From IMG/VR virus record IMGVR_UViG_3300028886_000066, positions 40,674-104,673 of that record: 64,000 bases of DNA; one strand, 5' to 3'. A model generated the notes under the pieces. That model was not told the origin of the DNA and made no database searches. It saw only the letters and a program-made list of their open reading frames with translations. A program made the position numbers and the translations under genes. This document shows positions 1 to 14,520 of this stretch, in pieces (the stretch's first letter is position 1; every line of letters begins with the position of its first letter). Origin of the DNA: a virus (taxonomy: Duplodnaviria > Caudoviricetes).

Positions 1-657
1 ACTGGAGTAGAACTCGGCGATAGTGTCAAAAGTATTGATAGAGCGGATGAGGCGTCGGAACGTCTCGTCGCTGACTTTCTTTCCCATTGACACGGCATCT
101 TCGGTCTTGGACATTCCCTTTTTCTCGTCCTGATTGAACGCGGCGAAGATTTCCGTAGTGTACGGATATTCATCGTCGGCGACAAGGCAGATGCGCGGAT
201 GAGAGAATGACTTGACTTGCTCTTCGGTGAATCCGTACTTGTTGGGAAATTCTTGCAGGTAGCTAATGTACGCCTTGTCGGTGTCGTAGCGTGCTGCAAT
301 TATTCCCGCCATTGTACGTCCGTTACCAGAGAGGACGATTCCGTCCTTTGAGACGATTGGCGGTATTGTGAGAGCCTGCTCGTCGTAGTTGTCGGCTATT
401 GAGCGCGTGACGGTCTGAGCGAACGTGTCGCGCTCGTAGTCTCGGTCGTTTACTGTCTGCCCGTTGGAATCGGTTGGGAATCCATCGGACTTGCAGAACG
501 AGTCGAACGGATCGTGACTCGGAGTCACTGCGCCCGATTCAGCCAGCAGGTAGCGTCCCTTGACTTTCAGTCCTGACGGCGTAGCGATTTTGTCGGCGTA
601 GCCGTAGAGTTTCCGTGCATCGTCGAAGCGTTTGCGGATGAGTTGTAAGTTTTCCAT
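1..657 (-). CDS. ddrB-like ParB-superfamily domain protein, runs off the window edge
   Basis: Not in ORF track; hand translation from ATG 657 is open to base 1: MENLQLIRKR...TPSHDPF...NDRDY...PPIVSKDGIVLSGNGRTMA; preceded by the array leader. Confidence 0.75.
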   Translation of the reverse strand, partial: MENLQLIRKRFDDARKLYGYADKIATPSGLKVKGRYLLAESGAVTPSHDPFDSFCKSDGFPTDSNGQTVNDRDYERDTFAQTVTRSIADNYDEQALTIPPIVSKDGIVLSGNGRTMAGIIAARYDTDKAYISYLQEFPNKYGFTEEQVKSFSHPRICLVADDEYPYTTEIFAAFNQDEKKGMSKTEDAVSMGKKVSDETFRRLIRSINTFDTIAEFYSS

Positions 658-723
658 AATCTTGAGTTTTAGTGATACATAAATTGTACGCACAGGTTGT
701 TTTCGCAGCCCATGCGCTTTGTG

Positions 724-906
724 TCAGTCTTCAGTGAAGGCATTTGCTTTCTTGAATACTTCGTAGACTCTGTTCTTTGCCTCGGCAATAGCCTCGCAAG
801 CATCTGCATCGGAAACGAGTTTTGTAGCGTCGTTGTAACGCTCCATTTCGTGCAGGAGTGCAGTCACGATGATGTCGATTTCCTGCTTGTTGAATGTCTC
901 TTTCAT
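724..906 (-). CDS. hypothetical protein (60 aa)
   Basis: ORF with a variant array leader. Confidence 0.75.
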   Translation of the reverse strand: MKETFNKQEIDIIVTALLHEMERYNDATKLVSDADACEAIAEAKNRVYEVFKKANAFTED

Positions 907-946
907 AATTCGTACTTAAATTGAGTTAAACTTTAGGTGAATTGTT

Positions 947-976
947 TTTGTAGTTGCAAAAATATTCCTACTTTTG
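947..976 (+). promoter_or_regulatory. Bacteroidetes promoter antisense to the early arm, overlapping a minus-strand -7 element
   Basis: TTTG 947-950, 18-nt spacer, TACTTTTG 969-976; TATTTTTG on the minus strand within the same TTGCAAAA..TTTTGCAA palindrome. Confidence 0.55.
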
Positions 977-1020
977 CAACCGAAAACCATGTGGGAGGTG
1001 TGCAAGACCTCCCTTTGGAC

Positions 1021-1086
1021 TTACCGAAGCGAAACGGCCAACGTAACGCTGACGTGCCAAATTCTAATCGAAATGCTGAATCTCAT
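1021..1086 (-). CDS. 21-aa peptide MRFSISIRIWHVSVTLAVSLR, candidate type I toxin
   Basis: Hand-translated; enclosed by 10-bp inverted repeat (983-992 / 1091-1100) and followed by GGGAGGT/ACCTCCC hairpin. Confidence 0.5.
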   Translation of the reverse strand: MRFSISIRIWHVSVTLAVSLR

Positions 1087-1161
1087 AGAAACATGGTTTT
1101 TTATCCCTACACTTTACTATCTGGCTTTCGGGACTGCCAACCCGCTACACGTAACAGGATT

Positions 1162-1497
1162 TCATTCTGAGCGAACGAGACGTCTGACCTCGTCGTAGAT
1201 TCGCAGCATATTGTCGATGGAGAGGAAGCAAGAACTGCCCCAGTACTCATCGTTGAACTGCGTGACGTAGAACTGGCTACCATTTCGGCTGTCCATGTAG
1301 GCAATACGGTCGGCAAGGATTGTCTCGCTTGTCTCGTTCTTGAAGTTGTGGAGAATCAGCGTATGACGAAACACGACATCCTGCCCGACTTCTGCTCCAA
1401 GCTGTTTCAGCAGCTCGATTGTCGATGTGGTTATTGACTCGCGGCACTCGGCTACGGCGTTGTTCACTCGCTTGTTTGTCTTAGTCTTGATTTTCAT
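1162..1497 (-). CDS. hypothetical protein (111 aa)
   Basis: ORF with array leader. Confidence 0.8.
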   Translation of the reverse strand: MKIKTKTNKRVNNAVAECRESITTSTIELLKQLGAEVGQDVVFRHTLILHNFKNETSETILADRIAYMDSRNGSQFYVTQFNDEYWGSSCFLSIDNMLRIYDEVRRLVRSE

Positions 1498-1564
1498 AAT
1501 TGTTGAGTTTTAATTGGTTAGACATAAATTCGTGAGCCGCCCCGCGATTGGGCGTTTGCGGCTC

Positions 1565-1855
1565 TTAGAGAGACTTGTACTCTTCGTACTTTGTCTTCAT
1601 ACCAACAGGAGCGTAGACGTTCAGGGCGTAGTCTACAAGTGCTTCCTGCAAGTCCAAGTCAAGTTCAACAAAGAAATAGTTCATTACCGCATGACTTCCG
1701 TAATCGTCGTAGATTTGGTTAAACTTCCCTCTTAGATGGTTTTTGAGGTAGTTTTTTCCAGTCTTCTCGCAGATGTAGTTGATAAACTCTTCTGGATTCG
1801 GGTAGTTGTAGCCGAATTTCACAAAGATGTGAACAAGTAGCATTTCTTTTCTCAT
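1565..1855 (-). CDS. hypothetical protein (96 aa)
   Basis: ORF; short leader containing the CGTACT motif. Confidence 0.8.
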   Translation of the reverse strand: MRKEMLLVHIFVKFGYNYPNPEEFINYICEKTGKNYLKNHLRGKFNQIYDDYGSHAVMNYFFVELDLDLQEALVDYALNVYAPVGMKTKYEEYKSL

Positions 1856-1870
1856 AATCGTACTTTTGTT

Positions 1871-2029
1871 TTAGAGTTCAACTTCCTGTTCGATGTCCAT
1901 AAGATAGCCCTCTTTTCCGCAATTCGGGAAAGCACAAGTGCCGTAATCGACGTACATTTCCGTCATGCAGCTGTTGCAGATGACGTGGTCTGGGCAGAAG
2001 TAGTTCACGTTGGAAAAATCTTTAATCAT
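1871..2029 (-). CDS. small Cys-rich, Zn-ribbon-like protein (52 aa)
   Basis: Below ORF-track cutoff; MIKDFSNVNYFCPDHVICNSCMTEMYVDYGTCAFPNCGKEGYLMDIEQEVEL; array leader. Confidence 0.7.
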   Translation of the reverse strand: MIKDFSNVNYFCPDHVICNSCMTEMYVDYGTCAFPNCGKEGYLMDIEQEVEL

Positions 2030-2104
2030 AATTGTTTGAGTTTTAAATTGTTAGACATAAAATTCGTACTCGGCAGGCAACTTTCGTGTCTGCCAAGCAG
2101 GGAG

Positions 2105-2353
2105 TTACGCTTCGATTTCGTCAAGCGTCAGTTCGATGGAATACTTTTCGAGCGCTTCAAACATCCATTTCTTACGGCGGTACTGTAACTCTGCCCAAGA
2201 CTCGCGGTAGTCTTCATCTTTGTCGAGACGGTTGGCTTCGCGACGAGCAATCAGATACTCGTTGATGTCGTTCAGGACTTCAGCCGTTTCCTCGAAGTCG
2301 AAGTCACGGCACATCATCTCGTTCAGGAGTTCGATAAGTGTCTGTTGTTTCAT
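2105..2353 (-). CDS. hypothetical protein (82 aa)
   Basis: ORF; ATGA overlap with the upstream gene. Confidence 0.75.
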   Translation of the reverse strand: MKQQTLIELLNEMMCRDFDFEETAEVLNDINEYLIARREANRLDKDEDYRESWAELQYRRKKWMFEALEKYSIELTLDEIEA

Positions 2354-2631
2354 TCTTCCTCAAAGTTTAGGTAGAGATTCTGTCTTGCCATGTCGCAGTA
2401 ATCAATGGAGCCAATCGGCTCGCACAATTCCCAATCCATTTCCTCGTCGGTATGAAATTCTGGATTGCGACCTGAATAGATGCAGTTCACGTTTGAGCAG
2501 TTGAAAGCGGAAAGTGAGCCGTCGCTGGTGTCGTAGACAAATTCGATGCCCTTGTTTCTGGCTTCGCAGAGGACTGCGTTAAGTTTCTTCAAAACTTCGA
2601 GATGTTCGGTAGTTAATGCTTTTTGTTTCAT
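2350..2631 (-). CDS. hypothetical protein (93 aa)
   Basis: ORF; start placed at the leader-defined ATG. Confidence 0.8.
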   Translation of the reverse strand: MKQKALTTEHLEVLKKLNAVLCEARNKGIEFVYDTSDGSLSAFNCSNVNCIYSGRNPEFHTDEEMDWELCEPIGSIDYCDMARQNLYLNFEEE

Positions 2632-2786
2632 AATCATTTGAGTTTTTAAGGGTTAGACAATAAAAAGTGACGGCAATGAGTTTTTCGCTCAAAGCCGACT
2701 GCAAGTTTAGCATCACAAAGTCCACACCTGAAATGAGGTGGATAGCGTGGGAGCTGGCAAAGCTGATTGCCTGCGCCCTGAAGAGT

Positions 2787-3017
2787 TTAGATGTTTGCTG
2801 TGCAGAAGAAATCGTCGTTCACAAAACAAACGCCCTCGTAGTTCCTGAAAATCACGCAGTCAGGAACAATTTCGTCGGCGTTTGCTAAATCGAAATAGGA
2901 CGGCTCGTTGTAGTCCACGTCTAAGACTTCTGCAAACGTTCCCTCATCGGCGAGCTGTTCGAGATAGTTACATTTCAGCTCAGTCAGTTGTTCTCTTGTT
3001 AATTCTGTTACGTCCAT
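2787..3017 (-). CDS. acidic hypothetical protein (76 aa)
   Basis: ORF; about 18 D/E vs 3 K/R by hand count. Confidence 0.8.
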   Translation of the reverse strand: MDVTELTREQLTELKCNYLEQLADEGTFAEVLDVDYNEPSYFDLANADEIVPDCVIFRNYEGVCFVNDDFFCTANI

Positions 3018-3020
3018 AAT

Positions 3021-3227
3021 TCATTTCAGATTAAGTTCACATTTGATTCCTAATTTCATACAGAGAAGTTCGTACTCGGCAAAGTACTTGTGGTCACGCA
3101 GGATTCCCTCTTCGATTTCATGTCTGAGAGTTTTTTCTGCCCGTTTGATTGCATCGACGTTGTGGTTGTTCTGCCAGAAGTCCCACAGATATTCGCCGAT
3201 TGCGATTCTGATTTTGTCTAAGGTCAT
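3021..3227 (-). CDS. hypothetical protein (68 aa)
   Basis: Start reset to leader-defined ATG 3227 (MTLDKIR). Confidence 0.75.
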   Translation of the reverse strand: MTLDKIRIAIGEYLWDFWQNNHNVDAIKRAEKTLRHEIEEGILRDHKYFAEYELLCMKLGIKCELNLK

Positions 3228-3278
3228 AATCGTTTGAGTTTTAAGGTGAAACAATAAGTGCAATCGGTAACGTTTCCG

Positions 3279-3503
3279 CTACCGAAAGCGTTTAGAACTG
3301 GACTTGCGACACGAACCATTCTTCGCGGAATCCGTACTTTGCGGCGACTTGATTCCCTGTGCGTTGAACATTGCGAATGTCTCGGCGGTGTAGTCGTAGT
3401 CATCATCACAGAGGAAGACGAGGCGGGAATGTGAAAAACCATCGAAATCGATGGGTTTAAAGCCGTACTTCTTGCAGGTTTTCAAGAGCTGCTTCGAGTA
3501 TTT
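3279..3503 (-). pseudogene. internal fragment of a ddrB-ParB-like paralog
   Basis: KYGFKPIDFDGFSHSRLVFLCDDDYDYTAETFAMFN aligns with KYGFTEEQVKSFSHPRICLVADDEYPYTTEIFAAFN of the 1-657 protein; the leader ATG at 3528 reads ATG AAA TAG. Confidence 0.65.
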
Positions 3504-3540
3504 TTAGGCAGTTCAACTACTATTTCATAGTCTCTGAGTT

Positions 3541-3774
3541 TTAATTGTTGATTAAATTCTTGATTTCTTCTTGTGTTTCGGTGACGCGGATTTCCTTATA
3601 TTGGACTCCGTTGGTGTATTCGACTAAGGCGTAGGGATAGCCCCAATACTTCGCTTCGGATTCGTTTACATTCTCGAAACGGACGATGCAATCAGAGTTG
3701 AATGTCACCTTTGCGGTTTTCATCTCCTCTGTTGCGCCACTTGTAATAACTGTAAGGTCGATAAATTTTGCCAT
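3541..3774 (-). CDS. hypothetical protein (77 aa)
   Basis: ORF with degenerate leader. Confidence 0.75.
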   Translation of the reverse strand: MAKFIDLTVITSGATEEMKTAKVTFNSDCIVRFENVNESEAKYWGYPYALVEYTNGVQYKEIRVTETQEEIKNLINN

Positions 3775-3786
3775 AATCTTTGCGTT

Positions 3787-4017
3787 TTAATATTCAACTT
3801 TGATTCCACAACTTTTGATGATATTCTCCTGTGCTTTGTGTACGAAAGCAGGAGCGAAATAGCCATCAGTCCACATTATCAGTTCTCCGTGCATACCACG
3901 CTGATAACCGATGTAATGTGTTTCAATAGCACCCGTGCTAAGCCCATGACTTTTTAGCACGTCAATAACTTTCTGTACGCACCCAGGGCGCGTTTCGAGA
4001 TAATACAATTTGTTCAT
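3787..4017 (-). CDS. hypothetical protein (76 aa)
   Basis: Start reset to ATG 4017 (MNKLYYL). Confidence 0.7.
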   Translation of the reverse strand: MNKLYYLETRPGCVQKVIDVLKSHGLSTGAIETHYIGYQRGMHGELIMWTDGYFAPAFVHKAQENIIKSCGIKVEY

Positions 4018-4072
4018 AATCTTAATGTTTTGAAATGTATAGTAAGCCACGCCGAAACTAATCCGTGTGACT

Positions 4073-4216
4073 TTAGTGGGGTAAAGTAACGTAAAGTGGC
4101 CAGACAATCAGATTACGCTCGTTCTTTACGTCTTTAACGTAATACGTTCCGTTGTAGCAGTGTTCGCAAGTCGAAATTCGTCTTGCAATACAATCTTTGC
4201 AGCATTTGTACTTCAT
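4073..4216 (-). CDS. small Cys-rich protein (47 aa)
   Basis: MKYKCCKDC...CEHC; ATGA overlap with 4213-4458. Confidence 0.55.
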   Translation of the reverse strand: MKYKCCKDCIARRISTCEHCYNGTYYVKDVKNERNLIVWPLYVTLPH

Positions 4217-4458
4217 AGTGCAGAAAATTCCGTTGAAACATCTTTCCAGTCCGTAAACACCTTTGACACTTTGTCCCAATACTCTGTGCCGTTGTGTTTC
4301 CCCAGAGAAACCTCAATCGTGAAGAGGTGCATCGTCTTGAAATTTCCGTCATCGTAGATACGATAGGATTTTCCGTCCTTACCAGTCTTTCGCTCAATCT
4401 CTCTCGGAGCAAGCAGATAAGCCATTCTCTCAGCTTCGTTCTTGAAATTCTTTTTCAT
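4213..4458 (-). CDS. hypothetical protein (81 aa)
   Basis: ORF with array leader. Confidence 0.8.
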   Translation of the reverse strand: MKKNFKNEAERMAYLLAPREIERKTGKDGKSYRIYDDGNFKTMHLFTIEVSLGKHNGTEYWDKVSKVFTDWKDVSTEFSAL

Positions 4459-4524
4459 AATCTTTTGAGTTTAGTGAAACAATAAATTTGTACCTTTGCG
4501 GAAAACCGATTCCGCAAAAGTAGT

Positions 4525-4683
4525 TCAGGAGATTCTTTCGAGACGTTTGTTTGCGCCTATCCAGTGATGCAGGACGGATGACGGCGATAAGTCTGCACTG
4601 TCGAACTCGTAGGTTTTCACTTCGTCGGTGTGGTCGTGGTTTTTCGCGGACATGGGATTGTAGGTGAGTCTGTATTTGGACAT
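4525..4683 (-). CDS. hypothetical protein (52 aa)
   Basis: Hand-translated MSKYRLTYNP...KRLERIS; fills the gap between neighbouring genes. Confidence 0.6.
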   Translation of the reverse strand: MSKYRLTYNPMSAKNHDHTDEVKTYEFDSADLSPSSVLHHWIGANKRLERIS

Positions 4684-4687
4684 GGCC

Positions 4688-4900
4688 TTAGATATTTACG
4701 AAGTAGAGCCACGAATTAATCAGCGAAATCTCGTCATCGTTGACTTTTTCAGAAAGTTCATCCAGAGTGAGGATGTCTGCCTCGTCATATCCGAAATTGG
4801 ATGCAATGTTAGCGAGGTCGTACTTCTCTCTGTCGCTCATCTTTACCAACTCGTCACGATTGTAAGAGTCGGCGGAAAATAATAATGCGTAAGTTTTCAT
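4688..4900 (-). CDS. hypothetical protein (70 aa)
   Basis: ORF with array leader. Confidence 0.8.
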   Translation of the reverse strand: MKTYALLFSADSYNRDELVKMSDREKYDLANIASNFGYDEADILTLDELSEKVNDDEISLINSWLYFVNI

Positions 4901-4970
4901 AATTCTTTGAGTTTAATAAGTGAAACATAAATTTGTAGAGTAGGGGAAACTAATCCCCAGACTCCGACGG

Positions 4971-5240
4971 CTACATCTTTTCGGGATTCCAGATGTCATC
5001 CTTTGTAGCCCATTTCTCAATCTTCTCGCCACAAACCATTGCGTGAACAAGGAAAAGAAGATTGCGCGTACTTGTAGAACTGCATTTCATCATGCAGAGT
5101 CCGACACCTCGTCTCAGGAAATACCAGAAATCAGGCTCATTTTCAGTTCCGCAATTATTGACGGTTGCGGTAATGAACACGTTTTTCTTTGCAGCGCACT
5201 TGATAGCGTTTGAAACCAAATTGTCAATACAATACTTCAT
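4971..5240 (-). CDS. hypothetical protein (89 aa)
   Basis: ORF with array leader. Confidence 0.75.
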   Translation of the reverse strand: MKYCIDNLVSNAIKCAAKKNVFITATVNNCGTENEPDFWYFLRRGVGLCMMKCSSTSTRNLLFLVHAMVCGEKIEKWATKDDIWNPEKM

Positions 5241-5297
5241 AATCTTTAGAGTTTAGTGAAACATTTGCGATGTTTGGGACATTTCTGCCCCAAACTT

Positions 5298-5531
5298 CTA
5301 CGCAGCAATCTTTTCGCGCACCTTAGCGACTTTCTCAGGTGTATCGAACCAGCACCGACCGTCAATGCAGTAATACTGCAAATCATCTTGTGGAACGTGA
5401 TAGACTTCAATCACTTTCTCGTCAGTTACTTTCTCGGCAAACTGCTTAACTTCTTCTTCTGTCAAATCGTAGGTGTAAACAAGGCAGTTGTCGCCATTCT
5501 CGAAATTCACGAATAAATTCTTTACTTCCAT
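5298..5531 (-). CDS. hypothetical protein (77 aa)
   Basis: Start reset to leader-defined ATG 5531 (MEVKNLF). Confidence 0.8.
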   Translation of the reverse strand: MEVKNLFVNFENGDNCLVYTYDLTEEEVKQFAEKVTDEKVIEVYHVPQDDLQYYCIDGRCWFDTPEKVAKVREKIAA

Positions 5532-5598
5532 AATCTTTGAGTTTTTAAGTGAGACATAAAATTCGTACTTCGCAGGACATTCCAGCCCTGCAAAGCGG

Positions 5599-5937
5599 TT
5601 AGATACAAAAGTCCGATTCATACCCGCCTTTGTTGTCAGGCCACATCGGATAATTTGTAAGGATGAATCCAAGATGATAGAACGGGAACTTGAACTTTGC
5701 CACATTTGAGCCATCATCAAGCAATCCCAAAAGCGGCTTGACCATTTCCGTAGCCTTTTCGTCAATGTACTTTTCAGAATACCACCATGCCAGAGGCTCG
5801 TTTGCAAACATTGCACGCATTATATTCTTGATTGATTCTTTTATCTCATCAAGATTGTCACTGCTGGAAATGTTCAGAGAATGAGACTCTTGCGTGTGAC
5901 AAGTGGTCAGGTACAGATAAAATGCTTTCTTTTCCAT
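5599..5937 (-). CDS. hypothetical protein (112 aa)
   Basis: ORF with array leader. Confidence 0.8.
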   Translation of the reverse strand: MEKKAFYLYLTTCHTQESHSLNISSSDNLDEIKESIKNIMRAMFANEPLAWWYSEKYIDEKATEMVKPLLGLLDDGSNVAKFKFPFYHLGFILTNYPMWPDNKGGYESDFCI

Positions 5938-6003
5938 AATTTTTGAGTTTTAAAGTGAATACTAATTTTGTACTTCGCAGGAAAATTGATTCCTGCAAAG
6001 TGT

Positions 6004-6204
6004 TTACTTTCCGTAATTTGGATTCGGCACTCGCGTTTCAGTTATCCGCACTCTTGCACCTGCCTCACGATAGCCAGCAACGTCACGGCGAACGTCGGAA
6101 TACTTTTCTTCTGGCTTAAAGTAAGAACATTCGATTTCCCATCCGTAGCCGTAGTTTGTCCAGATATTCCATCCGTACAGATACTTGTTTTCTTTCTTTT
6201 TCAT
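6004..6204 (-). CDS. hypothetical protein (66 aa, NYGYGWE motif)
   Basis: ORF with array leader. Confidence 0.8.
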   Translation of the reverse strand: MKKKENKYLYGWNIWTNYGYGWEIECSYFKPEEKYSDVRRDVAGYREAGARVRITETRVPNPNYGK

Positions 6205-6268
6205 AATTCATAAAGTTTTAAAAGTGAAACATAAGCGACTCAGGGAAGAATTAACCTCCCCGAATCTT

Positions 6269-6670
6269 TCAATGAAGAGTCAAGCCTAAAAGTTCGTATG
6301 TCGTCATACCCATTTCGCGGATAGGCTCTGCGAGAATGGCATGATTCAGATGAGGACATTTTGTTGAGCCGATTTTTTCATCCTCTGCAATGAACTTTCC
6401 GACTTTGAGAAGAACCCATCTCTGATTTGTTTCGGGATAGACTCTTTTCATCGTGCAGAGCAATTCCGTAACGTCAACATAAACATCGAATTTAGAATAC
6501 TCGTAAGCCAGATAAGTCTCACGGTCAACTTGTTTGCCGATTTCTTTTTCGTACTCGTCAAAAAGAGCTTGATGTTTCTTCCAGCTGATTTTCCCGTTTT
6601 TGTCAAGAATACTTTTGCTGAAAATCTCGCCTTCCAGACTCTTGATTGTTGAATAATCATACTTTGCCAT
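6269..6670 (-). CDS. hypothetical protein (133 aa)
   Basis: ORF with array leader. Confidence 0.8.
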   Translation of the reverse strand: MAKYDYSTIKSLEGEIFSKSILDKNGKISWKKHQALFDEYEKEIGKQVDRETYLAYEYSKFDVYVDVTELLCTMKRVYPETNQRWVLLKVGKFIAEDEKIGSTKCPHLNHAILAEPIREMGMTTYELLGLTLH

Positions 6671-6732
6671 AATTCAATGAGTTTTAAGTGAAACAATAGA
6701 ATCAGTGGGCTAAACTGATAGCCCAGAGATTT

Positions 6733-6993
6733 TTAGAACCATCCAAGAAATCCCAAATAACGTGTGGACTTCCTTTTCTGACTTGCGTTTACTTTCGGGT
6801 TGATTGCGCCGTGAGTGTAGCCGTAAGTTTCTTTGCGGTAGATTGCATCCATTACAGCATAGACTTCTTTGTAGTCTTCAACTTTGCTTAGGTCGATTGC
6901 GTTACGCTTGAATAATTTGTTCAGATTGCACTCAACCGTTTCCCAAGAGACAAACTGCTCTTTGCACATCTCCAAAAATTTCTCTTTTTCCAT
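6733..6993 (-). CDS. hypothetical protein (86 aa)
   Basis: ORF with array leader. Confidence 0.8.
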   Translation of the reverse strand: MEKEKFLEMCKEQFVSWETVECNLNKLFKRNAIDLSKVEDYKEVYAVMDAIYRKETYGYTHGAINPKVNASQKRKSTRYLGFLGWF

Positions 6994-7060
6994 AATTCAA
7001 TGAGTTTAGATTGTTAGACAAATTTTGAACAATCGGGCAAAACTAATCGCCCGAAAGTTT

Positions 7061-7402
7061 TCAGCCGAAACGGTTCAGGTCGTAGGAAACAGAAACGAGA
7101 CATTTGTTCAAATCTGTTACTACTTCCTCGAACTCGAATGTCTTCTTGACAAATTGCTGGTCGTACTTCATGATGATTTCCTTTGCAAGCGCAAAACTCT
7201 CTCTCTCGATATTCCCGTCTCTATGTCCAGAGTAAAGAGTGAATTTCTCATGCCAGATGTCTCCGTTGTTTGAAAGGAAAGTTTTCTCATCCCTTTCTGC
7301 AATACAAATCACACCATAGAAACCGTGAAAGAAGAAATAGTTCTTTCCAGTGAAGAGAATGTTGACTTCTCCACCAAATAATTCTGATTTAAAAAATTCC
7401 AT
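7061..7402 (-). CDS. hypothetical protein (113 aa)
   Basis: ORF with array leader. Confidence 0.8.
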   Translation of the reverse strand: MEFFKSELFGGEVNILFTGKNYFFFHGFYGVICIAERDEKTFLSNNGDIWHEKFTLYSGHRDGNIERESFALAKEIIMKYDQQFVKKTFEFEEVVTDLNKCLVSVSYDLNRFG

Positions 7403-7475
7403 AATTCATAAAGTTTTAAAGATTAAACATAAATTAGCCACCAGAGCGAAAATTAATCCGCTCCGATGAAAAGAT

Positions 7476-7775
7476 TCAGATGATTTCTTTCTTTATCATT
7501 TCAGCCAAAGCCAAAAGCGTAAAGCCAGCGTTTCCGTCGTAGGCCAAATCCTTGCGGCAGACGACATTGTGATAGAAAGCGTTTTCGAAAACATCTTCAT
7601 TGCAACTCAGGCTTGCGCCGACGGCGGTACGGTACGGGTCAATCATGTAAGCGATGAGGTTTGCGCGTTTTCCTAAGATTCGGATGACTTCCTGTGTACG
7701 ATTGCGGACGATTTCGATTGCATCATCAATCTGCTTGTCGGTGTAAAGGCGACGCTTTTCGATTTTCTTTTTCAT
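7476..7775 (-). CDS. hypothetical protein (99 aa)
   Basis: Start reset to leader-defined ATG 7775 (MKKKIEK). Confidence 0.8.
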   Translation of the reverse strand: MKKKIEKRRLYTDKQIDDAIEIVRNRTQEVIRILGKRANLIAYMIDPYRTAVGASLSCNEDVFENAFYHNVVCRKDLAYDGNAGFTLLALAEMIKKEII

Positions 7776-7853
7776 AATTCTGTGAGTTTTTAAAGTGAAA
7801 CATAAATCGTAGGCACGCCAACTTCTCAGCCAGCGCACCCGAAACATTATCCA

Positions 7854-8057
7854 TTATGAAACTACAATTCCAAACATTTCAATTCTCCGATTGATTTCCG
7901 CTTTTGCTTCTTTCAGAGTATCAGTAATCATCGGAATCATATAACCACAGGAATAGATTTCGTACTGCTTTGCAGGAATCCATTTCGTACCGTCAAATTC
8001 AACTACTCTTTTTCGCTGAATTTCATAACCTTTGTAGGTGTAAGTCTTTGTAATCAT
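7854..8057 (-). CDS. hypothetical protein (67 aa)
   Basis: ORF with array leader. Confidence 0.8.
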   Translation of the reverse strand: MITKTYTYKGYEIQRKRVVEFDGTKWIPAKQYEIYSCGYMIPMITDTLKEAKAEINRRIEMFGIVVS

Positions 8058-8125
8058 AATCTTTTGAGTTTTAAGTGAATAATTCGCTCCCCGAAAATAT
8101 TTCTCGTACTTTCGGGAAAATTGTG

Positions 8126-8575
8126 TTACGCAGCTTCTTTTTCCTGTTCGCGCTCGTATTCAAGTTCGGAAATCCACTCGCCGAAATTGTAAGTGAGTCC
8201 CCAAGTTCCGAAAGCACGGAAAAACCAATCAAACGCCCACGTCTGGAACTTCTTCAAATCTTCGTCGGAAATAGTTTCGTCGTCAATGCTTTTTATCACA
8301 TCGTCAAACGTTCCCCACGGCTGAATCTCAGAACCGATAAACTCAGGACAATATTCCCAGTCTTCACGAATATTGCAGAAATTCCCGCACATCTTCGTAT
8401 CTTTTCTGTGAACGTACTTTTTCATCGACTCCAAAGTTTCAAACGCGGAGTTGGCAGCGTAATCTTCGGTTTCGGATTCCCAAGAACCGTAATCCATTCC
8501 GTAATTTTCGATTGTCTCCTTGAAGAGATTCAGGAACGTTTCGTAAACGTCATCGTAATTCAAAAAATCTTTCAT
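8126..8575 (-). CDS. highly acidic, aromatic-rich hypothetical protein (149 aa)
   Basis: ORF with array leader; about 35 D/E vs 14 K/R by hand count. Confidence 0.85.
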   Translation of the reverse strand: MKDFLNYDDVYETFLNLFKETIENYGMDYGSWESETEDYAANSAFETLESMKKYVHRKDTKMCGNFCNIREDWEYCPEFIGSEIQPWGTFDDVIKSIDDETISDEDLKKFQTWAFDWFFRAFGTWGLTYNFGEWISELEYEREQEKEAA

Positions 8576-8646
8576 AATGGTTGAGTTTTTAAAAGTGAAT
8601 AAATAATTATCGTACTTTGGCGCAGGACTGACCGCGCCAAAATAAA

Positions 8647-8976
8647 TCAGGATACTTCGATAATTTCGTCAATGCGTCCGCAAACAACATGACGCAGTGC
8701 AGTTTTATCAAAAGCATAATACTCAAACCAACTTCCGTATTGGTTAATAATGTACCTTTTCAGGAAATCTTTGAAACCAAATAGCCAACCTTGCAGCGGA
8801 ATAGAATGCTTTGAAAAGGTGTTGTGAAAAACTTTTTCGGAAATCCAGTTCTTTTCTTCGCGTGAAAGTTTCTCGCCATTCATGCACTTTTGTTTGAGTT
8901 GATAAACTTTGCTTTCTTTCAATTCTTCGAGCGCAGGAACTTCCCACGTTACGAACTTGTAAGCCATTTCTTTCAT
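8647..8976 (-). CDS. hypothetical protein (109 aa)
   Basis: ORF with array leader; resembles a small conserved protein of Bacteroidales mobile elements (recalled, not searched). Confidence 0.8.
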   Translation of the reverse strand: MKEMAYKFVTWEVPALEELKESKVYQLKQKCMNGEKLSREEKNWISEKVFHNTFSKHSIPLQGWLFGFKDFLKRYIINQYGSWFEYYAFDKTALRHVVCGRIDEIIEVS

Positions 8977-9042
8977 AATTATTTTGAGTTTTAGGGGTTA
9001 ATTTTCGTACTTCCCGCGAAATCTCTCTCACGGGAAATAAAT

Positions 9043-9189
9043 TCAGCGCAAAGACGGATAACGTTTCATGATACGCTCGCACTCCCTGGATAAAGTCAGA
9101 TACAACATAGAACTTTTTTCAAGATTCGCCATGATGTTACGATTCGCGTTCAACGAATTGCTCGCAACCAATTTGTCTAATTTGCTCAT
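9043..9189 (-). CDS. hypothetical protein (48 aa)
   Basis: Hand-translated MSKLDKLVAS...RYPSLR. Confidence 0.6.
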   Translation of the reverse strand: MSKLDKLVASNSLNANRNIMANLEKSSMLYLTLSRECERIMKRYPSLR

Positions 9190-9192
9190 AAC

Positions 9193-9411
9193 TCACGCAA
9201 CTTTTGATTTCATAAGTTTGTCGTACAAAGTTTCTGGAGTATCTTTTTCCTCCCAGAACATTTCAAGACAGGCGCAAATCTCATTCTTCGTAGCGTTTGG
9301 GAAAACATCACGAACAACTTCCGACATCTTTTTCGTACTCTCAGGATTAACCCAAGCAAGAAGAGGATCATCAAAAATCCTCTCCAGTTCCTTTCTTAAT
9401 TCTTCTTTCAT
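9193..9411 (-). CDS. hypothetical protein (72 aa)
   Basis: ORF with array leader. Confidence 0.8.
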   Translation of the reverse strand: MKEELRKELERIFDDPLLAWVNPESTKKMSEVVRDVFPNATKNEICACLEMFWEEKDTPETLYDKLMKSKVA

Positions 9412-9475
9412 AATTATAAGAGTTTTAAGTGAATAAAAAATCGTACTATCGGTAAGATTTACCCTACCGATAATT

Positions 9476-9616
9476 TTAGAAACACAAACCTATATTCTGC
9501 TGAGAATTGAAAAACTTTTCAGCTTTCTCAAGCATTTTCGTACTACCACAACCGAAATTGTAATACAGTCGATAAACTCTTTCGAGCTGTTCGGAAATCT
9601 GTTTGAACGTTTTCAT
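9476..9616 (-). CDS. hypothetical protein (46 aa)
   Basis: Start reset to ATG 9616 (MKTFKQISEQL). Confidence 0.65.
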   Translation of the reverse strand: MKTFKQISEQLERVYRLYYNFGCGSTKMLEKAEKFFNSQQNIGLCF

Positions 9617-9678
9617 AATTTTCTCCTTTCTGAAATAAAATTCGTACTTCGTGCCAGCTCTCACCAGCACAAAGCAAA

Positions 9679-10122
9679 TTACCAGACTTTTATCGGCTTT
9701 CTTTTCGGATTCATCAACGCGCCACCTTTCAAGAAAGAATTGCAGGCGCGTTTCAGAGATTTCCCAGAATAGAATTGCCAAAGCTGACCGTCAATTTCAT
9801 CGCCGTTTTCATTTATCGGCATGAAATCGGAATTGTAACGGCCATCGGGTGAAACCTGAGTTTCATAATGCTCAAATTCATTTTTCCCGTCGTAATTCTC
9901 GTAGCCGATTGTTCCGACATAAAGTTTTCTTTCAGTGTCGAAAACTTCAGCGGTGAAATACGGATGACCAAAAGACAAATCTGAAAAATCGACATAAAAT
10001 TTCGGATTCGGATTTTCTTTTGTCGCTCTCATCGTCGTCCCGTGACTTTCGTCTTTAATGTACGGGCAAAACTGCAAACCGAGATTCGCAGAAGTCTTTT
10101 CGCAAAATTCTTTGAAGTTCAT
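9679..10122 (-). CDS. hypothetical protein (147 aa)
   Basis: ORF with array leader. Confidence 0.85.
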   Translation of the reverse strand: MNFKEFCEKTSANLGLQFCPYIKDESHGTTMRATKENPNPKFYVDFSDLSFGHPYFTAEVFDTERKLYVGTIGYENYDGKNEFEHYETQVSPDGRYNSDFMPINENGDEIDGQLWQFYSGKSLKRACNSFLKGGALMNPKRKPIKVW

Positions 10123-10194
10123 AATCTTTGAGTTTTAATTGTGAATAATTATCGTACTTCCAAAATATTTTTCGTACTTTGGAAGTGAAAAGTA

Positions 10195-10290
10195 CTATCC
10201 GAAAAACAGGATAACAAAGTAAGTCAGGACAAGCCAGCAGATGCAGCAGATGAAACCGCCACAGAAATCTAAAATCTCTTTTCTATTCAT
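10195..10290 (-). CDS. 31-aa single-TM membrane peptide
   Basis: Hand-translated MNRKEILDFCGGFICCICWLVLTYFVILFFG. Confidence 0.6.
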   Translation of the reverse strand: MNRKEILDFCGGFICCICWLVLTYFVILFFG

Positions 10291-10358
10291 AATTTTCGTA
10301 CTTTGAAATAATTATCGTACTCTGGAAGTAATTTTCGTACTCCCAGAATTTTCGTACT
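10291..10358. repeat. four tandem AATTWTCGTACT boxes
   Basis: CGTAC cores at 10297, 10316, 10336 and 10353. Confidence 0.85.
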
Positions 10359-10567
10359 TACTGATACGCTGCAATCAATTTCCAATCGTTACGGTTTTTC
10401 ACGTAAACCTGAATCAGAAAAGCGTTCACGTCGCGTTTCGCTTCTGCAAAAATCTTGCGGGCGTGTACCTGAGCATCGGCGTGACACTCAAACATTTCAC
10501 GATGAAAATTAAAACCAGCGGTCAGATTCGTGTTCTGAAAATGAATCTCGAACAAATAACTTTTCAT
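10358..10567 (-). CDS. hypothetical protein (69 aa)
   Basis: Start reset to leader-defined ATG 10567. Confidence 0.75.
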   Translation of the reverse strand: MKSYLFEIHFQNTNLTAGFNFHREMFECHADAQVHARKIFAEAKRDVNAFLIQVYVKNRNDWKLIAAYQ

Positions 10568-10613
10568 AATCTTTTGAGTTTTTAAGTAAGACAATTAGCT
10601 TTCGCCACCTGAA

Positions 10614-10919
10614 TTAACAGGCAGCGAAATAAAGTTTTCGGTAAGTCTTGAAATCAATTCCGTTTTCTTTCAGGAACTCACAACTCCACCGAAATTCTTT
10701 CATAAGAGATTGCAAACGCTCGAAGTCGCAAAGGAAATCATAAAACTTTTGAAAATCCCTGGACTTTTCAATTCCTAAATTCTGAATCATTGAAAATTCA
10801 GCTTCCAAGTCACGCGAAAGAATAATCAAATATCTTTGTTCGCGCGAATAGTTCTTCACGAAATATTGTGCGGCCTGACTCCGCTGGGAATCAAGCCGTT
10901 TTCTATCTTCTGACATCAT
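10614..10919 (-). CDS. hypothetical protein (101 aa)
   Basis: ORF coupled to the upstream small gene. Confidence 0.75.
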   Translation of the reverse strand: MMSEDRKRLDSQRSQAAQYFVKNYSREQRYLIILSRDLEAEFSMIQNLGIEKSRDFQKFYDFLCDFERLQSLMKEFRWSCEFLKENGIDFKTYRKLYFAAC

Positions 10920-11044
10920 AACGCAAGAGTTTTGATTGTTTCAATACTTTTTGCGCCGCAAATTGCGCACATCATAACGTCACCGAACTTTGCGGAAATC
11001 TTTTCAGAAAGTTCCGCGAGCTTGTAAATTAAATCGTCGTTCAT
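10916..11044 (-). CDS. hypothetical protein (42 aa)
   Basis: Hand-translated MNDDLIYKLAEL...KTLAL; array leader. Confidence 0.6.
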   Translation of the reverse strand: MNDDLIYKLAELSEKISAKFGDVMMCAICGAKSIETIKTLAL

Positions 11045-11074
11045 AATCTTTTGAGTTTTATTGAGTGAATAAAT

Positions 11075-11347
11075 TTAATCTCTCTCAAAGTGCTTTGTTG
11101 CAACAAATTCCGTAATTGCAGAAATCGGATAAACGAATTTTATTCCGTCATCATTCCGAGAAAAATTGCGCCCGACCGCAATCTGTGTGCGGACGATTGA
11201 ATAAACCTTTTCCAAATCAGAATCTAAAATGGAATTGTGCCACTCGATTTCAATCTGGAAATCATTTACTTTCTTGATTGATACTCTGTAAAGAGTTACA
11301 TTCCCGTCGATAGTGTCGATGGAAATACGATAAACTTTTGTTTTCAT
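11075..11347 (-). CDS. hypothetical protein (90 aa), first gene of the array
   Basis: ORF with A-rich initiation region. Confidence 0.75.
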   Translation of the reverse strand: MKTKVYRISIDTIDGNVTLYRVSIKKVNDFQIEIEWHNSILDSDLEKVYSIVRTQIAVGRNFSRNDDGIKFVYPISAITEFVATKHFERD

Positions 11348-11659
11348 AATTGATAATGTTTAAAATTTATTGAGCTTTAATACGGAATCGAACCGCCGAG
11401 AAATTTCTAAAAGAAATCTTCAAACCAGAATAAAACAAAAAGGAAATGACAAAACGGAAATCTTTTAACCCGTCACTTTGTTTTTCAAAATCTTTTCGGA
11501 AAACTTCCGCTTTGTCACTCCAAAAAATCTTTTCACGTTTCAACAAAAATGCAAACGCCAAAAAGATTTGCAACGAAAACTCAATTATGAATTTTTCTTT
11601 TGCCGTTTTTCGTCGCTTTTTTCGTTTTCCGCAAATATCACTTTTTAGAATCGGTTGCA

Positions 11660-12420
11660 AATAAAACGCCGACGGGATCACCCGCCGACGAAACACCACC
11701 GCCACCGTCACCCGCCGCCCTGATATGGGCAGGAGTGAGGAACGGCAGCAGGGCAGCAGGGCAGACCACCCGCCACAAAGGGCAGGCAGGCCACCGCCGC
11801 CGCCGCCCTGATATGGGCAGGAGCAACACGACGAAACACGGCCGCCGGGAACATCATGCAGGGCAGGGAAACCGCCGACACCCGGACACCTAAACCCGCC
11901 GACCCACGCCGACAAGCCCCCAAGACACCGACCCCACCACCGCACAAAAGGCAGCGGGGCAGGCCGAGGAACAACCCGACGCAACCGACGGAGGAACCAG
12001 GGCAGCAGGAACACCACCCACACACAACGCCCCCAGCGTTTTAGTACACTCCCAGTTACAACCGACAAGACAACCGCCCGCCCTGATAGCAACCAGGAGG
12101 AACGGAAACAAGCCCCAGGGCACCCAACAACCCGCCGCCACAAAGGGCAGCAGGGCAGCAGGGCAGGCAAGCCAACGCCAACCAGCAACACCGCCACAAG
12201 GGCAGCGCACACGATCAGCAAGCCCGCCACCAATCGACAACCAGGAACACCACCGCAGGAACCACGCAACCACGCCGGGCAATTTTCCGCCAACACCACC
12301 GAAACAAAGGGCAGGGAGGGCAGAACACACCCAACGCGAACACGCAGCCAAAGGACACCCAAAGGGCACCCACAAGGGCAGCACCAACGCCGAAAGGGCA
12401 GGGAGGGCAGGAGCAACCGG
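11660..12420. repeat. T-depleted, low-complexity non-coding region with direct repeats
   Basis: Plus strand almost lacks T; 24-bp direct repeat CCGCCGCCCTGATATGGGCAGGAG at 11712-11735 and 11800-11823; recurrent CCACAA(A)GGGCAG and GCAGGGCA. Confidence 0.8.
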
Positions 12421-12618
12421 GCAGGCTAAGCCCCGGAAACTCCCTACTTTAAGCAGGATAAGCAGTTACGGAAAGCCCGTCTAAACCGTAACAGTCGATC
12501 GTCAAAAAGTAACTTTTGCGCCCTGATGAGGAAACGAACCCCAACCGCCTAAAGGCAGGCCACCAGGCCAGAGCAGGAGGCAGGCAGCAGGAACACCGCC
12601 CACCCTGATAGGGTGCAA

Positions 12619-13698
12619 TTACATCTGCAATAATTTATCAATAGTAGAGGCCACCGAGTAAGCCCGTGAACGCTCTTTTAACGCGCTCTTAATAGTCCGC
12701 GCAATCTTCGCAGGGCAGTTATCAGTATCAAGGACGGTAACACCACCTAACGACAAGATAAGATCATTTGCGCCGTTAATACGTGCAACCGCTTTCTCTA
12801 AGTTGGCGCGTAGTTGTTTGCGCTCTTTATGGTCAGAAGTTGAGCTATAGTTATAATCCCGCCTCACGTCTGAAAGTACACGATCCATATCGTAACCCAG
12901 ACGCTTCGCAAGCCTAACGGCGAGGCCGATATATGTCGTATAATCAAAGCGATCAGAAGAACGAGCCGCCGACAAACGGCGATTAAATTCCGACACTTCA
13001 CGAAGCGATAACAGGGCAGCGACAACGGCAGAAGCAGAAGCCCCAGCCGCGACTGGTACACTATCGACGAAGTCAGAAAGAACAGAGTTAGAACGAACAA
13101 CCGACACCGACAAGCGCCAAGAATAGTTATTTAAGCCGTTTTCCCTGATATGGGCAACCACGGCAGCGAACGACATACCAACCAACGAAACAAACTCCTT
13201 AAGATAGGAACGACGAATAACAACCAACACACGCCCAACGGTACAAGCAGGTGCCGACAAATCTAAACCCGCTTTTTTGGCAGCCCCAGCAACGGCGGCA
13301 TTTATCATTTCGTCCGACCAGTCGGGGAACGTAGCCCGAAGGGCGTTTTCTGTTTTCTCTTTTTCCGACCACTCAGGAGCCGCAAAGTTACTAACAATGT
13401 CGGCAGACAATTCACGAACACCACGCGACAACTTAAAGCCCTCAAAACGCAAGGAACTTTCTAATTTTGCCCGCATATCGAGACGTGCAGCACGACGAGA
13501 AGAAGCCGAAGAAGAACCGACACCGACAACAGGAGCAGAGTTAACAGAGCCAGAAGCCGCCGAGCCAACACCCGACCCAGCAGGAGCCGACACCGACACA
13601 CCATTTACAACCATCTGCAAATCCTTTGCAGATACTTTTTCACTCTTGCGAGATCCGCGAGTTTTGCGGGACATCTCTTTTTTGTTTGTTGTAGCCAT
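12619..13698 (-). CDS. hypothetical protein (359 aa), basic, A/S/V/R-rich
   Basis: Long ORF with AT-rich initiation region; no family recognised. Confidence 0.75.
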   Translation of the reverse strand: MATTNKKEMSRKTRGSRKSEKVSAKDLQMVVNGVSVSAPAGSGVGSAASGSVNSAPVVGVGSSSASSRRAARLDMRAKLESSLRFEGFKLSRGVRELSADIVSNFAAPEWSEKEKTENALRATFPDWSDEMINAAVAGAAKKAGLDLSAPACTVGRVLVVIRRSYLKEFVSLVGMSFAAVVAHIRENGLNNYSWRLSVSVVRSNSVLSDFVDSVPVAAGASASAVVAALLSLREVSEFNRRLSAARSSDRFDYTTYIGLAVRLAKRLGYDMDRVLSDVRRDYNYSSTSDHKERKQLRANLEKAVARINGANDLILSLGGVTVLDTDNCPAKIARTIKSALKERSRAYSVASTIDKLLQM

Positions 13699-13745
13699 AA
13701 TAAATAATGATTAAATGATTAATAACTGATTTACTTATTTATATC

Positions 13746-13946: not shown

Positions 13947-13985
13947 ATTCTTGAAATTTTTAGTGAATAAACCAATTTAACGCTG

Positions 13986-14237: not shown

Positions 14238-14400
14238 GGGGGTAACCCCCCGATGCACAAAAGCCGCGGGCATACTGACCCCTTCTCGGAATTTTTTAAT
14301 TTTTCAAATTTCATTCCGTTAAGATTTTGACTTAACGTTTTTAACATTCTTAAAGTTTTGAAGAAAAGTTAGTGCATAATGTCGAAAAAATGGTGTAGTG

Positions 14401-14432: not shown

Positions 14433-14520
14433 CGGCAATAGTGTAGTATATGTAGGATAATACTTCATATATAGATGGATTTAAGTATTTGATAAATATA
14501 ATATTATAAGGGTTTACATA

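Follow-up and report, generated by a model that had tools for sequence, protein, structure and literature searches.

A one-way array of small genes

The window analysed here, a stretch of 64,000 nucleotides whose positions supply all coordinates below, belongs to phage Q, a temperate siphophage of a Bacteroidota host with a genome of 104,673 bp (~105 kb). Between 655 and 11347 it carries 36 ORFs on the minus strand, of 31-149 aa, plus a 566-aa ddrB-ParB-like gene that starts at 657 and continues past the window end. No two of the 36 ORFs fall into one similarity family, which bears out an earlier note that had described about 35 unrelated small genes; PHROG/Pfam matches comprise a PHROG of unknown function for 2/34 array ORFs and a Pfam DUF for 1/34, and the ORFs shared with relatives have a median dN/dS of 0.17. 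The host-takeover or anti-defence content that the note suggested is conjectural for such ORFans. A full copy of a composite intergenic unit, made up of a hairpin and a leader, precedes 22 of the ORFs, about six have short or partial forms, and the eight genes lacking a unit are each translationally coupled to the preceding gene. An Xer-like tyrosine recombinase (281 aa) is encoded downstream, at the end of the array, and the phage also encodes a Bacteroidota-type integrase, so that the absence of a visible integrase, as once supposed, does not hold. The features are the following:

655..11347, minus: whole array, 36 ORFs
11348..11690, minus: upstream AT-rich non-coding region, candidate site of the array promoter(s), conserved in the related phages G005 and L117
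11042..11073, minus: unit 1, leader only, without hairpin, ATG 11044
10565..10625, minus: unit 2, hairpin (loop TTAATT) and leader, ATG 10567
10288..10358, minus: class-2 unit, four GTACGAWAATT boxes, one in the hairpin loop; short leader abutting ATG 10290; conserved in G005, G003, L117, G001, L128 and L129
10120..10186, minus: unit 3, ATG 10122, preceding a 147-aa cassette
9614..9676, minus: variant unit, hairpin and GTACGA box, Shine-Dalgarno-like leader AGAAAGGAG; ATG 9616 opens a 46-aa anchor gene retained in six phages
9409..9474, minus: unit 4, ATG 9411
8974..9039, minus: unit 5, GNRA loop GAGA, ATG 8976
8573..8644, minus: unit 6, ATG 8575, two compensatory stem changes versus L117
8055..8118, minus: unit 7, ATG 8057
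7773..7840, minus: unit 8, loop GAGA, ATG 7775
7400..7468, minus: unit 9, loop TTAATT, ATG 7402
6991..7059, minus: unit 10, loop TTAGTT, ATG 6993
6668..6731, minus: unit 11, loop TCAGTT, ATG 6670, unit-only match to G001
6202..6266, minus: unit 12, loop TTAATT, ATG 6204
5935..6001, minus: unit 13, loop TCAATT, ATG 5937
5529..5596, minus: unit 14, ATG 5531
5238..5304, minus: unit 15, loop GAAA, ATG 5240
4898..4965, minus: unit 16, loop TTAGTT, ATG 4900
4456..4522, minus: unit 17, loop TCGGTT, ATG 4458
4015..4073, minus: partial unit, hairpin loop TTAGTT, degenerate leader, ATG 4017
3224..3541, minus: decayed cassette, leader, then ATG AAA TAG TAG, remaining frame frameshifted
3225..3291, minus: unit 18, ATG 3227
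2629..2672, minus: unit 19, leader after about 115 nt of non-coding DNA, ATG 2631
2027..2099, minus: unit 20, loop GAAA, ATG 2029
1853..1870, minus: short form, 15-nt intergenic gap with AAGTACGATT, then ATG 1855
1495..1564, minus: unit 21, ATG 1497
907..1161, minus: non-coding gap with terminator-like hairpin and T-run, promoter, unit-like leader, ATG 906
655..717, minus: unit 22, ATG 657 of the ddrB-ParB-like gene

The motif AAACTYW-N2-7-ATTATG has 22 copies on the minus strand in the interval 655-11058, against 0.02 copies expected from shuffled sequence, and a single further copy in the rest of the window. An nhmmer profile built from the 22 units and searched against the whole 104,673-bp genome recovered 22/22 of them, each at E<=0.011, and no further unit at E<0.1; the units lie on a single strand, each ends in ATG, and all are confined to the 10.7-kb array. 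The structural genes lack the unit, as had been claimed, and a motif equally common before all host and phage genes, named beforehand as the outcome that would speak against the proposal, was not what this search returned. Three short forms, GTACGA(A/T)AATT-ATG, have their ATG at 10290, 1855 and 906, and about three partial forms at 4017, 3774 and 9616; only with these weaker forms included is the earlier count of 25-30 copies reached. Against the Rfam covariance models, window 1-14600 had no match at E<=1, and the whole genome had none that reached the gathering score. Weak unit-like leaders also stand before the recombinase gene downstream of the array and before a 66-aa gene at about 13946.

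Start region, hairpin and transcription signals

In its final 14 nt, the unit matches an idealised start region of the Bacteroidia type, which lacks a Shine-Dalgarno sequence, with A at -3 in 22/22 units, at -6 in 18/22, at -12 in 21/22 and at -13 in 22/22, and a G content of 3.6% across positions -20 to -1. ATT-ATG and the A-rich block keep a fixed distance from the start codon in 22/22 units, and a Shine-Dalgarno-like core is present in 0/22, versus 18/83 other phage genes. This pattern of A at four positions, low G and no Shine-Dalgarno sequence is that of Bacteroidia initiation regions, and A at the same positions raises translation in Flavobacterium johnsoniae (PMC6847099). Any ORF placed between two units would thus receive a start site that works. 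This start-region model does not account for the conserved TGTTTCAC box (-20 to -30) or for the GTACGA box.

The hairpin has a dG of -11 to -19 kcal/mol in 21 units and behaves as expected of RNA: the sense strand folds more stably than the antisense in 74/81 units, with a mean gain of 4.6 kcal/mol versus 1.0 in ORF controls, and G-U pairs make up 15% of stem pairs. Stem sequences vary freely and covary beneath a constant loop, with compensatory stem changes between orthologous units of different phages. The loop is TYRRTT (UYRRUU in RNA) in about 42/89 units and GNRA in about 13/89; G002 has the GNRA class and L151 neither class.

Signals for transcription are found around the units. In the 907..1161 gap, a canonical terminator-like hairpin with T-run (1013-993) is accompanied by a canonical Bacteroidota promoter, TTG ... 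TATTTTTG, which ends at 957 upstream of a unit-like leader. Two relatives, L117 and G003, and window position 13986 likewise show a canonical -7 box upstream of a unit-like hairpin or leader; in all these cases the leader falls in the 5' UTR. The 15-nt gap with the GTACGATT-ATG form leaves no room for a promoter. Upstream of the array, the AT-rich region 11348-11667 holds near-canonical -7 boxes only and no canonical one, and directly upstream of it lies a canonical terminator-like site (11690-11667). In the 22 leaders, the host -7 element TAHHTTTG (consensus from PMC6847099) is absent throughout, its sole canonical copy in any unit being in the 5' arm of the unit 17 hairpin. Since the leaders lack a -7 box, the hairpins fold much better as sense than as antisense RNA and the start region is present, we take the units for promoter-less RNA modules between cistrons. 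As for the expression role of the joint proposed in the earlier note, it is probably that of a translation or RNA module and not that of a promoter.

Exchange of cassettes among related phages

At least 10 related phage contigs carry mosaic arrays, not the fixed gene order with repeat-unrelated breakpoints that would have argued against exchange, and unit or ORF edges account for 73% of homology-block ends, versus 29% expected. Whole units are conserved between unrelated ORFs: for example, one and the same unit 8 stands before three unrelated ORFs in Q, G001 and G003, and unit 9 shares 88% identity with a G003 unit flanked on both sides by unrelated ORFs. The 147-aa cassette of unit 3 occupies another slot in the relative G005. 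L151 and L153, which are 98-99% identical, differ by a 114-aa cassette present in one and absent from the other, and the single L151 unit is chimeric, its left part corresponding to the upstream L153 unit and its right part to the downstream one, with the crossover within the shared TAACCAATA core. This is the one clean chimeric-unit indel found, and crossover points differ among events (leader core, stop codon, ATG). The unit consensus is lineage-specific, and both G002 and the L151 lineage shuffle genes although they lack GTACGA boxes. The mosaics, the block ends and the chimeric unit support the claim that the unit is a standard joint for gene gain, loss, replacement and movement. Breakpoints at gene borders are also expected from selection on random recombinants, which counts against reading them as the work of a recombination joint.

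Explanations and significance

The explanation that we favor, with moderate confidence, is that the unit is a standard intercistronic module acting mainly at the RNA level, whose repetition makes it a recombination joint. The array, with its putative message starts, ends and processing sites, would probably be transcribed as long messages from a few promoters. Between cistrons, each unit would give a stable sense-strand hairpin directly after the stop codon, which may serve as a stabiliser of 3' or 5' ends, a processing signal, an attenuator or a structural insulator, and a G-poor, presumably unstructured leader of 25-37 nt ending in the start region, at whose 14 nt Bacteroidia ribosomes, with no Shine-Dalgarno pairing, would start. 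With more than 20 direct copies of a 30-80-bp unit adjoining and similar copies in co-infecting relatives, homologous recombination between units, by a presumed enzyme, could delete, insert, replace and move whole cassettes, and the Sak single-strand-annealing protein of the phage itself (L131:6416-7024, E=1e-42) would plausibly assist. It is conceivable, if rather doubtful, that single-gene messages arise when the long transcript is cut by a dedicated protein that recognises the conserved UYRRUU loop.

Such an arrangement has a precedent in the PeSL (promoter-early stem-loop) cassettes of T4-type phages (Arbiol et al. 2010, PMC2839356; Comeau et al. 2014, PMC4122927), which likewise are repeated intergenic composites of a stem-loop, a conserved expression signal and a start codon, are concentrated in a hyperplastic ORFan region (here 22 units in 10.7 kb), contain a stable stem-loop (here seen in dG and covariation) and harbor the junctions of indels or replacements between relatives, a deletion leaving a chimeric motif behind, as the Fig. 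3 model of those authors has it. If the units were true PeSL-type cassettes, the hairpin would be a terminator and the TATGTTTCAC box a non-canonical -7 promoter in each unit, used by the host RNA polymerase, perhaps with a phage factor, making each gene an autonomous, moron-like transcription unit. The order of stop, hairpin, conserved box, leader and ATG mirrors PeSLs (PMC2839356), TATGTTTC agrees with TAnnTTTG at 7/8 positions, its distance of 16-19 nt from the ATG makes a plausible short leader, and the region upstream of the array yielded no strong promoter; some hairpins have T-rich tails, and as 5-6/22 pass a loose hairpin-plus-T-run terminator scan, some termination, hence per-unit promoters, is conceivable. 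However, in PeSLs the promoter matches host sigma-70 perfectly and the terminator has been tested (PMC2839356, PMC4122927), whereas here the host -7 element is missing from 22/22 leaders, the conserved part is a Shine-Dalgarno-less start region, and most hairpins lack a U-tract, those of the L151 lineage having none at all. In the host element, G-5 is nearly invariant and G almost never occurs at -9 (PMC6847099); the unit box, reading TATGTTTC-AC, never has the former, and many units have a G at -9, where real promoters avoid it. The canonical promoters found elsewhere in this phage do not resemble the unit box (TTG-N-TAnnTTTG sites precede other genes or operons, and canonical terminators also occur), the leader lies downstream of the start site where the two meet, and a search of 68 other phage proteins gave neither a sigma factor nor an RNA polymerase. 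The phage itself also differs, being a temperate Bacteroidota siphophage and not a T4-like myovirus. True PeSL-type cassettes appear an unlikely description of these units.

Less probable still are two readings in which the unit is a binding site. The units could be arrays of sites for a regulator, either stoperator-like or a RegA-type translational repressor, that silences or times a gene class, recombination being a by-product. They are intergenic, in one orientation and high in copy number, the UYRRUU loop and its closing A-U pair are conserved beyond stability needs, the lineage-specific consensus suggests co-evolution with a phage factor, and a temperate phage must silence array genes in the lysogen. 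The stoperators of mycobacteriophage L5 are reportedly 13-bp repressor sites (Brown et al. 1997). The intergenic repeats of halovirus HF2 have been shown to be promoters (PMC8707807). Both comprise many oriented short intergenic copies controlling a phage gene class, but they lack the variable hairpin and start-region leader and have no tie to cassette exchange. Related phages have different loop classes, GNRA in G002 and neither class in L151, which means that no single binding factor can be general, and no candidate binding protein was identified; we regard regulator binding as improbable, and it can in any case coexist with the RNA-level module. The start-associated sequences (SAS/ESAS) of Cluster K mycobacteriophages (Pope et al. 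2011, PMC3203893) are also short, asymmetric and conserved right before the ATG, in one orientation in the non-structural genome part, and precede unrelated gene families, with an upstream inverted repeat in some. Unlike our units (0/22), SAS have an AGGAG Shine-Dalgarno core, and the sequences are unrelated; ESAS are conserved repeats without RNA-type covariation, proposed to be protein-binding DNA, whereas here the stems vary and covary, and the units have a documented role in gene shuffling.

It is very improbable that the hairpin/GTACGA element is the target of a cassette-capture machinery, an Xer-like recombinase with an FtsK-like motor, as a site-specific, independently evolved integron analogue. 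Integron arrays run in one direction; their ORFs are small, unrelated to one another and for the most part without promoters, and a structured element follows each stop. The array described here resembles them in these respects and in gene turnover. In Q, in the L157 lineage and in G001/L127, the array is followed by a tyrosine recombinase and an FtsK-like motor, and LoVEphage has a similar pair; GTACGA is 12-fold strand-biased in the array (25 versus 2) and also occurs as tandem 'empty' copies, and one chimeric ORF junction sits at a GTACGA. Yet GTACGA inside ORFs is mostly xxG-TAC-GAx, encoding Tyr-Asp/Glu, shuffling proceeds without the box in G002 and the L151 lineage, and there is no constant crossover point. 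The units have no attC core sites (core and inverse core), and these varying crossovers speak against attC, as do the G-U pairs on the sense strand, which are as in RNA and unlike the bottom-strand folding of attC. Nor is there an IntI-type integrase beside the array, the 281-aa recombinase scoring 25 bits against a cut-off of 265 for the integron integrase model TIGR02249 and matching best a generic Xer model (56 bits versus a 220-bit cut-off). The integron-like system that had been suggested is therefore not upheld, and the link is only an analogy of outcome, not of mechanism.

The accessory regions of phages contain many genes of unknown function, and their fast turnover is only partly understood. 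Together, these data carry the PeSL idea, in which repeated regulatory joints are hot spots of recombination, beyond T4-like coliphages to the large temperate siphophages of Bacteroidota, the dominant gut phylum, and suggest that such a joint may be something other than a promoter. For Bacteroides engineering, the unit is a candidate for a standard part, as a translation element or an insulator, and its copies flag a searchable class of fast-evolving phage genes. From the point of view of the phage, a portable hairpin followed by an adenine-patterned leader may make a captured ORF expressible where ribosomes ignore Shine-Dalgarno sequences.

Phage identity and the small-gene array

The window covers positions 40674-104673 of one virus record that is 104,673 bp long. 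This virus is a siphophage, with genes for a 2570-aa tape measure, a portal, a large terminase, and a major head protein, together with a reverse transcriptase of the diversity-generating-element type. It is temperate, with genes for an integrase of the Bacteroidota type, a repressor-like protein (S24), and the single-strand-annealing protein Sak. ORFs of 2,000 aa had suggested a crAss-like phage with virion-RNA-polymerase promoters, a reading discarded because these ORFs encode a tape measure and tail proteins and because the portal shares 40% identity with its counterpart in the Bacteroides phage LoVEphage and the relatives of LoVEphage. The N-terminal 862 aa of the tape measure gave no RNA polymerase match in Pfam, and a further 68 phage proteins yielded neither an RNA polymerase nor a sigma factor. 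Two features stand out at window 22193-25027 and 19199-20347: a large terminase ORF of 944 aa, whose PHROG terminase matches are limited to the second half and whose N-terminus has an additional DnaC-like/ATPase match, and a gene resembling HNH/NUMOD4 homing endonucleases that adjoins the portal gene.

The array comprises 36 minus-strand ORFs, from window 11347 to 657. The earlier note described small, mutually dissimilar genes, most of them behind a hairpin and leader, and this description holds: a loose leader-end pattern occurs 22 times in the array and once elsewhere in the window (0.02 expected from shuffles), and a profile built from the 22 units finds all 22 and nothing further in the whole genome. 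The feature is strongly non-random. The ORFs are unrelated to one another and nearly all are ORFans; because the median dN/dS of those common to relatives is 0.17 (41 pairs), the shared ORFs are real genes.

Parts of a typical unit, in order on the minus strand, and two further features
1. Stop codon
2. Hairpin of 12-14 pairs, dG -11 to -19 kcal/mol
3. GTAC(G/A)A box at the stem base, 3' side
4. AT-rich stretch
5. TGTTTCAC-like box
6. TTAAAACTCAAAGATT, then ATG
Window 7482-7400, minus strand: unit conserved between unrelated flanks, compared with the related phage contig G003
L108:14917-19331 (genome 36.9-41.3 kb), just beyond window base 1: genes into which the array leads

The leader, which is single-stranded, spans 25-37 nt. 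In the short form, present at three genes, GTACGA(A/T)AATT directly abuts the ATG, and eight genes without a unit are translationally coupled. GTACGA occurs 25 times on the sense and 2 times on the antisense strand of the window's array, with 10 copies inside array ORFs (mean 3.7 in codon shuffles). Between the gene for a 359-aa protein and the array lies a GC-rich tract of ~950 bp (window 11667-12617), with a minus strand nearly devoid of A and many CTGCCC/CCTGC repeats; it is 70-89% conserved in the related contigs G005 and L117, its called ORFs (the 'F0' family) look spurious, and candidate roles for the tract are origin, partition site, and regulatory region. The L151 lineage has ACAAAGTTTG-type iterons in its place. 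At its other end the array leads into genes for a 566-aa ddrB-ParB-like protein, a 414-aa FtsK motor without membrane domain, and a 281-aa Xer-like recombinase, the last with a weak unit-like leader. In the L157 lineage, too, the array is followed by the FtsK and recombinase pair, and LoVEphage has a similar pair.

RNA, translation, and promoter features of the units

When every intergenic stretch of 81 units from eight phages was folded on both strands, the hairpin not being selected beforehand, the sense RNA was the more stable in 74, with a mean sense-antisense difference of 4.6 kcal/mol in units versus 1.0 in ORF controls. G-U makes up 15% of stem pairs, and the loop is a TYRRTT hexaloop in ~42 of 89 units and a GNRA tetraloop in ~13. 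The eight pairs nearest the fixed hexaloop vary freely in sequence while keeping their pairing, a count that is partly circular since the hairpins were chosen by folding, and compensatory changes separate orthologous units of different phages. The hairpins thus behave as coding-strand RNA. They match no Rfam family; on that blank, and on the lack of a significant duplex with any non-coding region, a guide RNA or ribozyme that would act in trans by pairing with the unit was discarded.

Adenine precedes the ATG at -3 in 22/22 units, at -6 in 18/22, at -12 in 21/22, and at -13 in 22/22; G accounts for 3.6% of positions -20 to -1, and none of the 22 has a Shine-Dalgarno (SD)-like core. Adenine at these positions raises translation in Flavobacterium johnsoniae; the ribosomes of this species and of other Bacteroidia make no use of SD pairing (PMC6847099). 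A conserved upstream ORF from the first ATG of TTTATG was rejected on its variable frame and spacing and on the missing ATG in the related genome G001. AGGAG-type SD-like sequences, odd in a phage of an SD-blind lineage, precede 18 of 83 non-array genes, including that of the major head protein, and may mark a distinct class for translation; a variant unit at 9616 carries AGAAAGGAG.

A promoter of each unit's own, as in the promoter-early stem-loop (PeSL) cassettes of T4-type phages, was sought by comparison with the Bacteroidia -7 element TAHHTTTG, in which G at -5 is nearly invariant and G at -9 almost absent (PMC6847099). The unit box, TATGTTTC-AC, violates both rules, and no TAHHTTTG was found in the unit leaders, the sole copy lying within a hairpin arm. 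Canonical TTG-N-TAnnTTTG sites do precede other genes and operons of the same phage. Within the array, a non-coding gap of 255 nt (907-1161) holds a canonical terminator-like hairpin with a T-run and then a canonical promoter; the phage's stop-and-restart signal looks unlike the units. This gap has two hairpins, a terminator-like site at 1013-993, and a -7 box with its end at 957. A small RNA may be encoded there, with no Rfam match. At window 957, at window 13986, and in L117 and G003, a unit-like hairpin/leader is preceded by a canonical -7 box, so that the leader there belongs to the 5' UTR. Before the ATG at 1855, a 15-nt gap holding the GTACGATT form leaves no room for a promoter. Two other placements also failed: an antisense canonical promoter fits 2 units only, and the hairpin loop as a -33 element is at odds with a loop-to-box distance of ~12 to 19 nt. 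The units thus do not appear to be host promoters. On the other side, no promoter feeding the array was found, and the TGTTTCAC and GTACGA boxes are not accounted for by the adenine-rich start region. We regard a promoter in each unit as unlikely and lean toward the units acting as RNA modules rather than promoters; the array would then be read as a few long transcripts, with the units as intercistronic RNA modules.

Probable exchange of cassettes at the units

Relatives were gathered by a 21-base motif scan of IMG/VR, a protein-profile scan, and exact-protein look-ups. They include G001 and G002, which are complete at 108-110 kb and have 23 and 8 pattern matches, respectively, the fragments G003, G005, L117, and L127-L129, and a second lineage, L151-L157; G002 and G004 proved to be the same phage. 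The unit motif is absent from LoVEphage, a 17-nt motif scan of IMG/VR gave chance single matches only, and species-representative bacterial genomes gave lone leader-like matches and no arrays. Nothing was returned when the array was compared by Megablast with GenBank phages, when loci were searched with single proteins (the ParB-like protein; the primase), or when a protein atlas was queried with two cassette proteins; exact-protein look-up of this phage's cassettes yielded only the phage itself, in two runs of a single study. The exact leader core (ATGTTTCACTTAAAACTCAAAG/AATTATG) occurs as a single copy before isolated genes in contigs of Bacteroidales and Bacteroidia genomes (L144:4640-4691 and L147:2026-2070); these copies could be stray cassettes or prophage remnants. 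Of two Logan contigs of the same phage (L149 and L150, SRR9008756), one ends and the other starts at the unit that separates the 149-aa gene from the 67-aa gene (window ~8060-8125), a break that may be due to the repeat or to population variation at the joint.

The arrays keep anchor genes in the same order, the content between anchors differs, and some cassette families sit at different positions in different phages. The comparison of breakpoints among relatives proposed in the earlier note thus gave a gene order that is not fixed between anchors and block ends concentrated at intergenic DNA and ORF edges. Of 286 homology-block ends inside arrays, which are not independent events and whose borders selection for intact ORFs would also favor, 73% are intergenic or no more than 20 nt from the start or stop of an ORF versus 29% expected from length, and right-hand ends cluster just past the ATG of a non-homologous ORF. 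Three observations reach further than these ends. Whole units, including their own hairpin, are 80-88% identical between phages despite unrelated ORFs on both sides, and synonymous sites of common genes are near saturation in those same pairs. A 147-aa cassette with its own leader occupies slot 3 in the phage studied here and slot 1 in G005, with borders within the leader and at the stop codon. Some cassette blocks are replaced between the contigs L151 and L153, which are 98-99% identical across 9 kb, and L153 has a 114-aa cassette that L151 lacks; in its place L151 has a single unit whose left part matches the L153 unit before the gene and whose right part matches the one after it, the switch falling within the shared TAACCAATA core. 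Crossover positions vary from event to event, which favors homologous recombination on short repeats over a site-specific enzyme. The Sak protein is an obvious candidate helper, given what Rad52-like phage recombinases are known to do. We consider it very probable that the units mediate cassette exchange. A decayed cassette at window 3224-3541, which opens with a good leader and ATG AAA TAG TAG and in which two frameshifts break the remainder of a plausible ~95-aa frame, suggests that cassettes also die in place. L151 also carries seven tandem GTACGA repeats within an ORF (9195-9265); in a chimeric, frameshifted ORF, L153 homology begins exactly at the last GTACGA.

Among known systems, the integron-like character proposed in the earlier note does not stand, failing on integrase, site structure, and crossover precision. 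The SAS/ESAS elements of Cluster K mycobacteriophages are near in position and orientation but, unlike the units, hold an SD core and repeats that do not covary (PMC3203893). PeSL cassettes (PMC2839356, PMC4122927) are closest in behavior, and the chimeric unit of L151 is the signature their model predicts, but their defining promoter feature was not found in the units. A limited literature search returned no description of such units in Bacteroidota phages. On the sequence evidence, the units are read as PeSL-like shuffling joints, probably promoter-less RNA and translation modules adapted to an SD-blind host.
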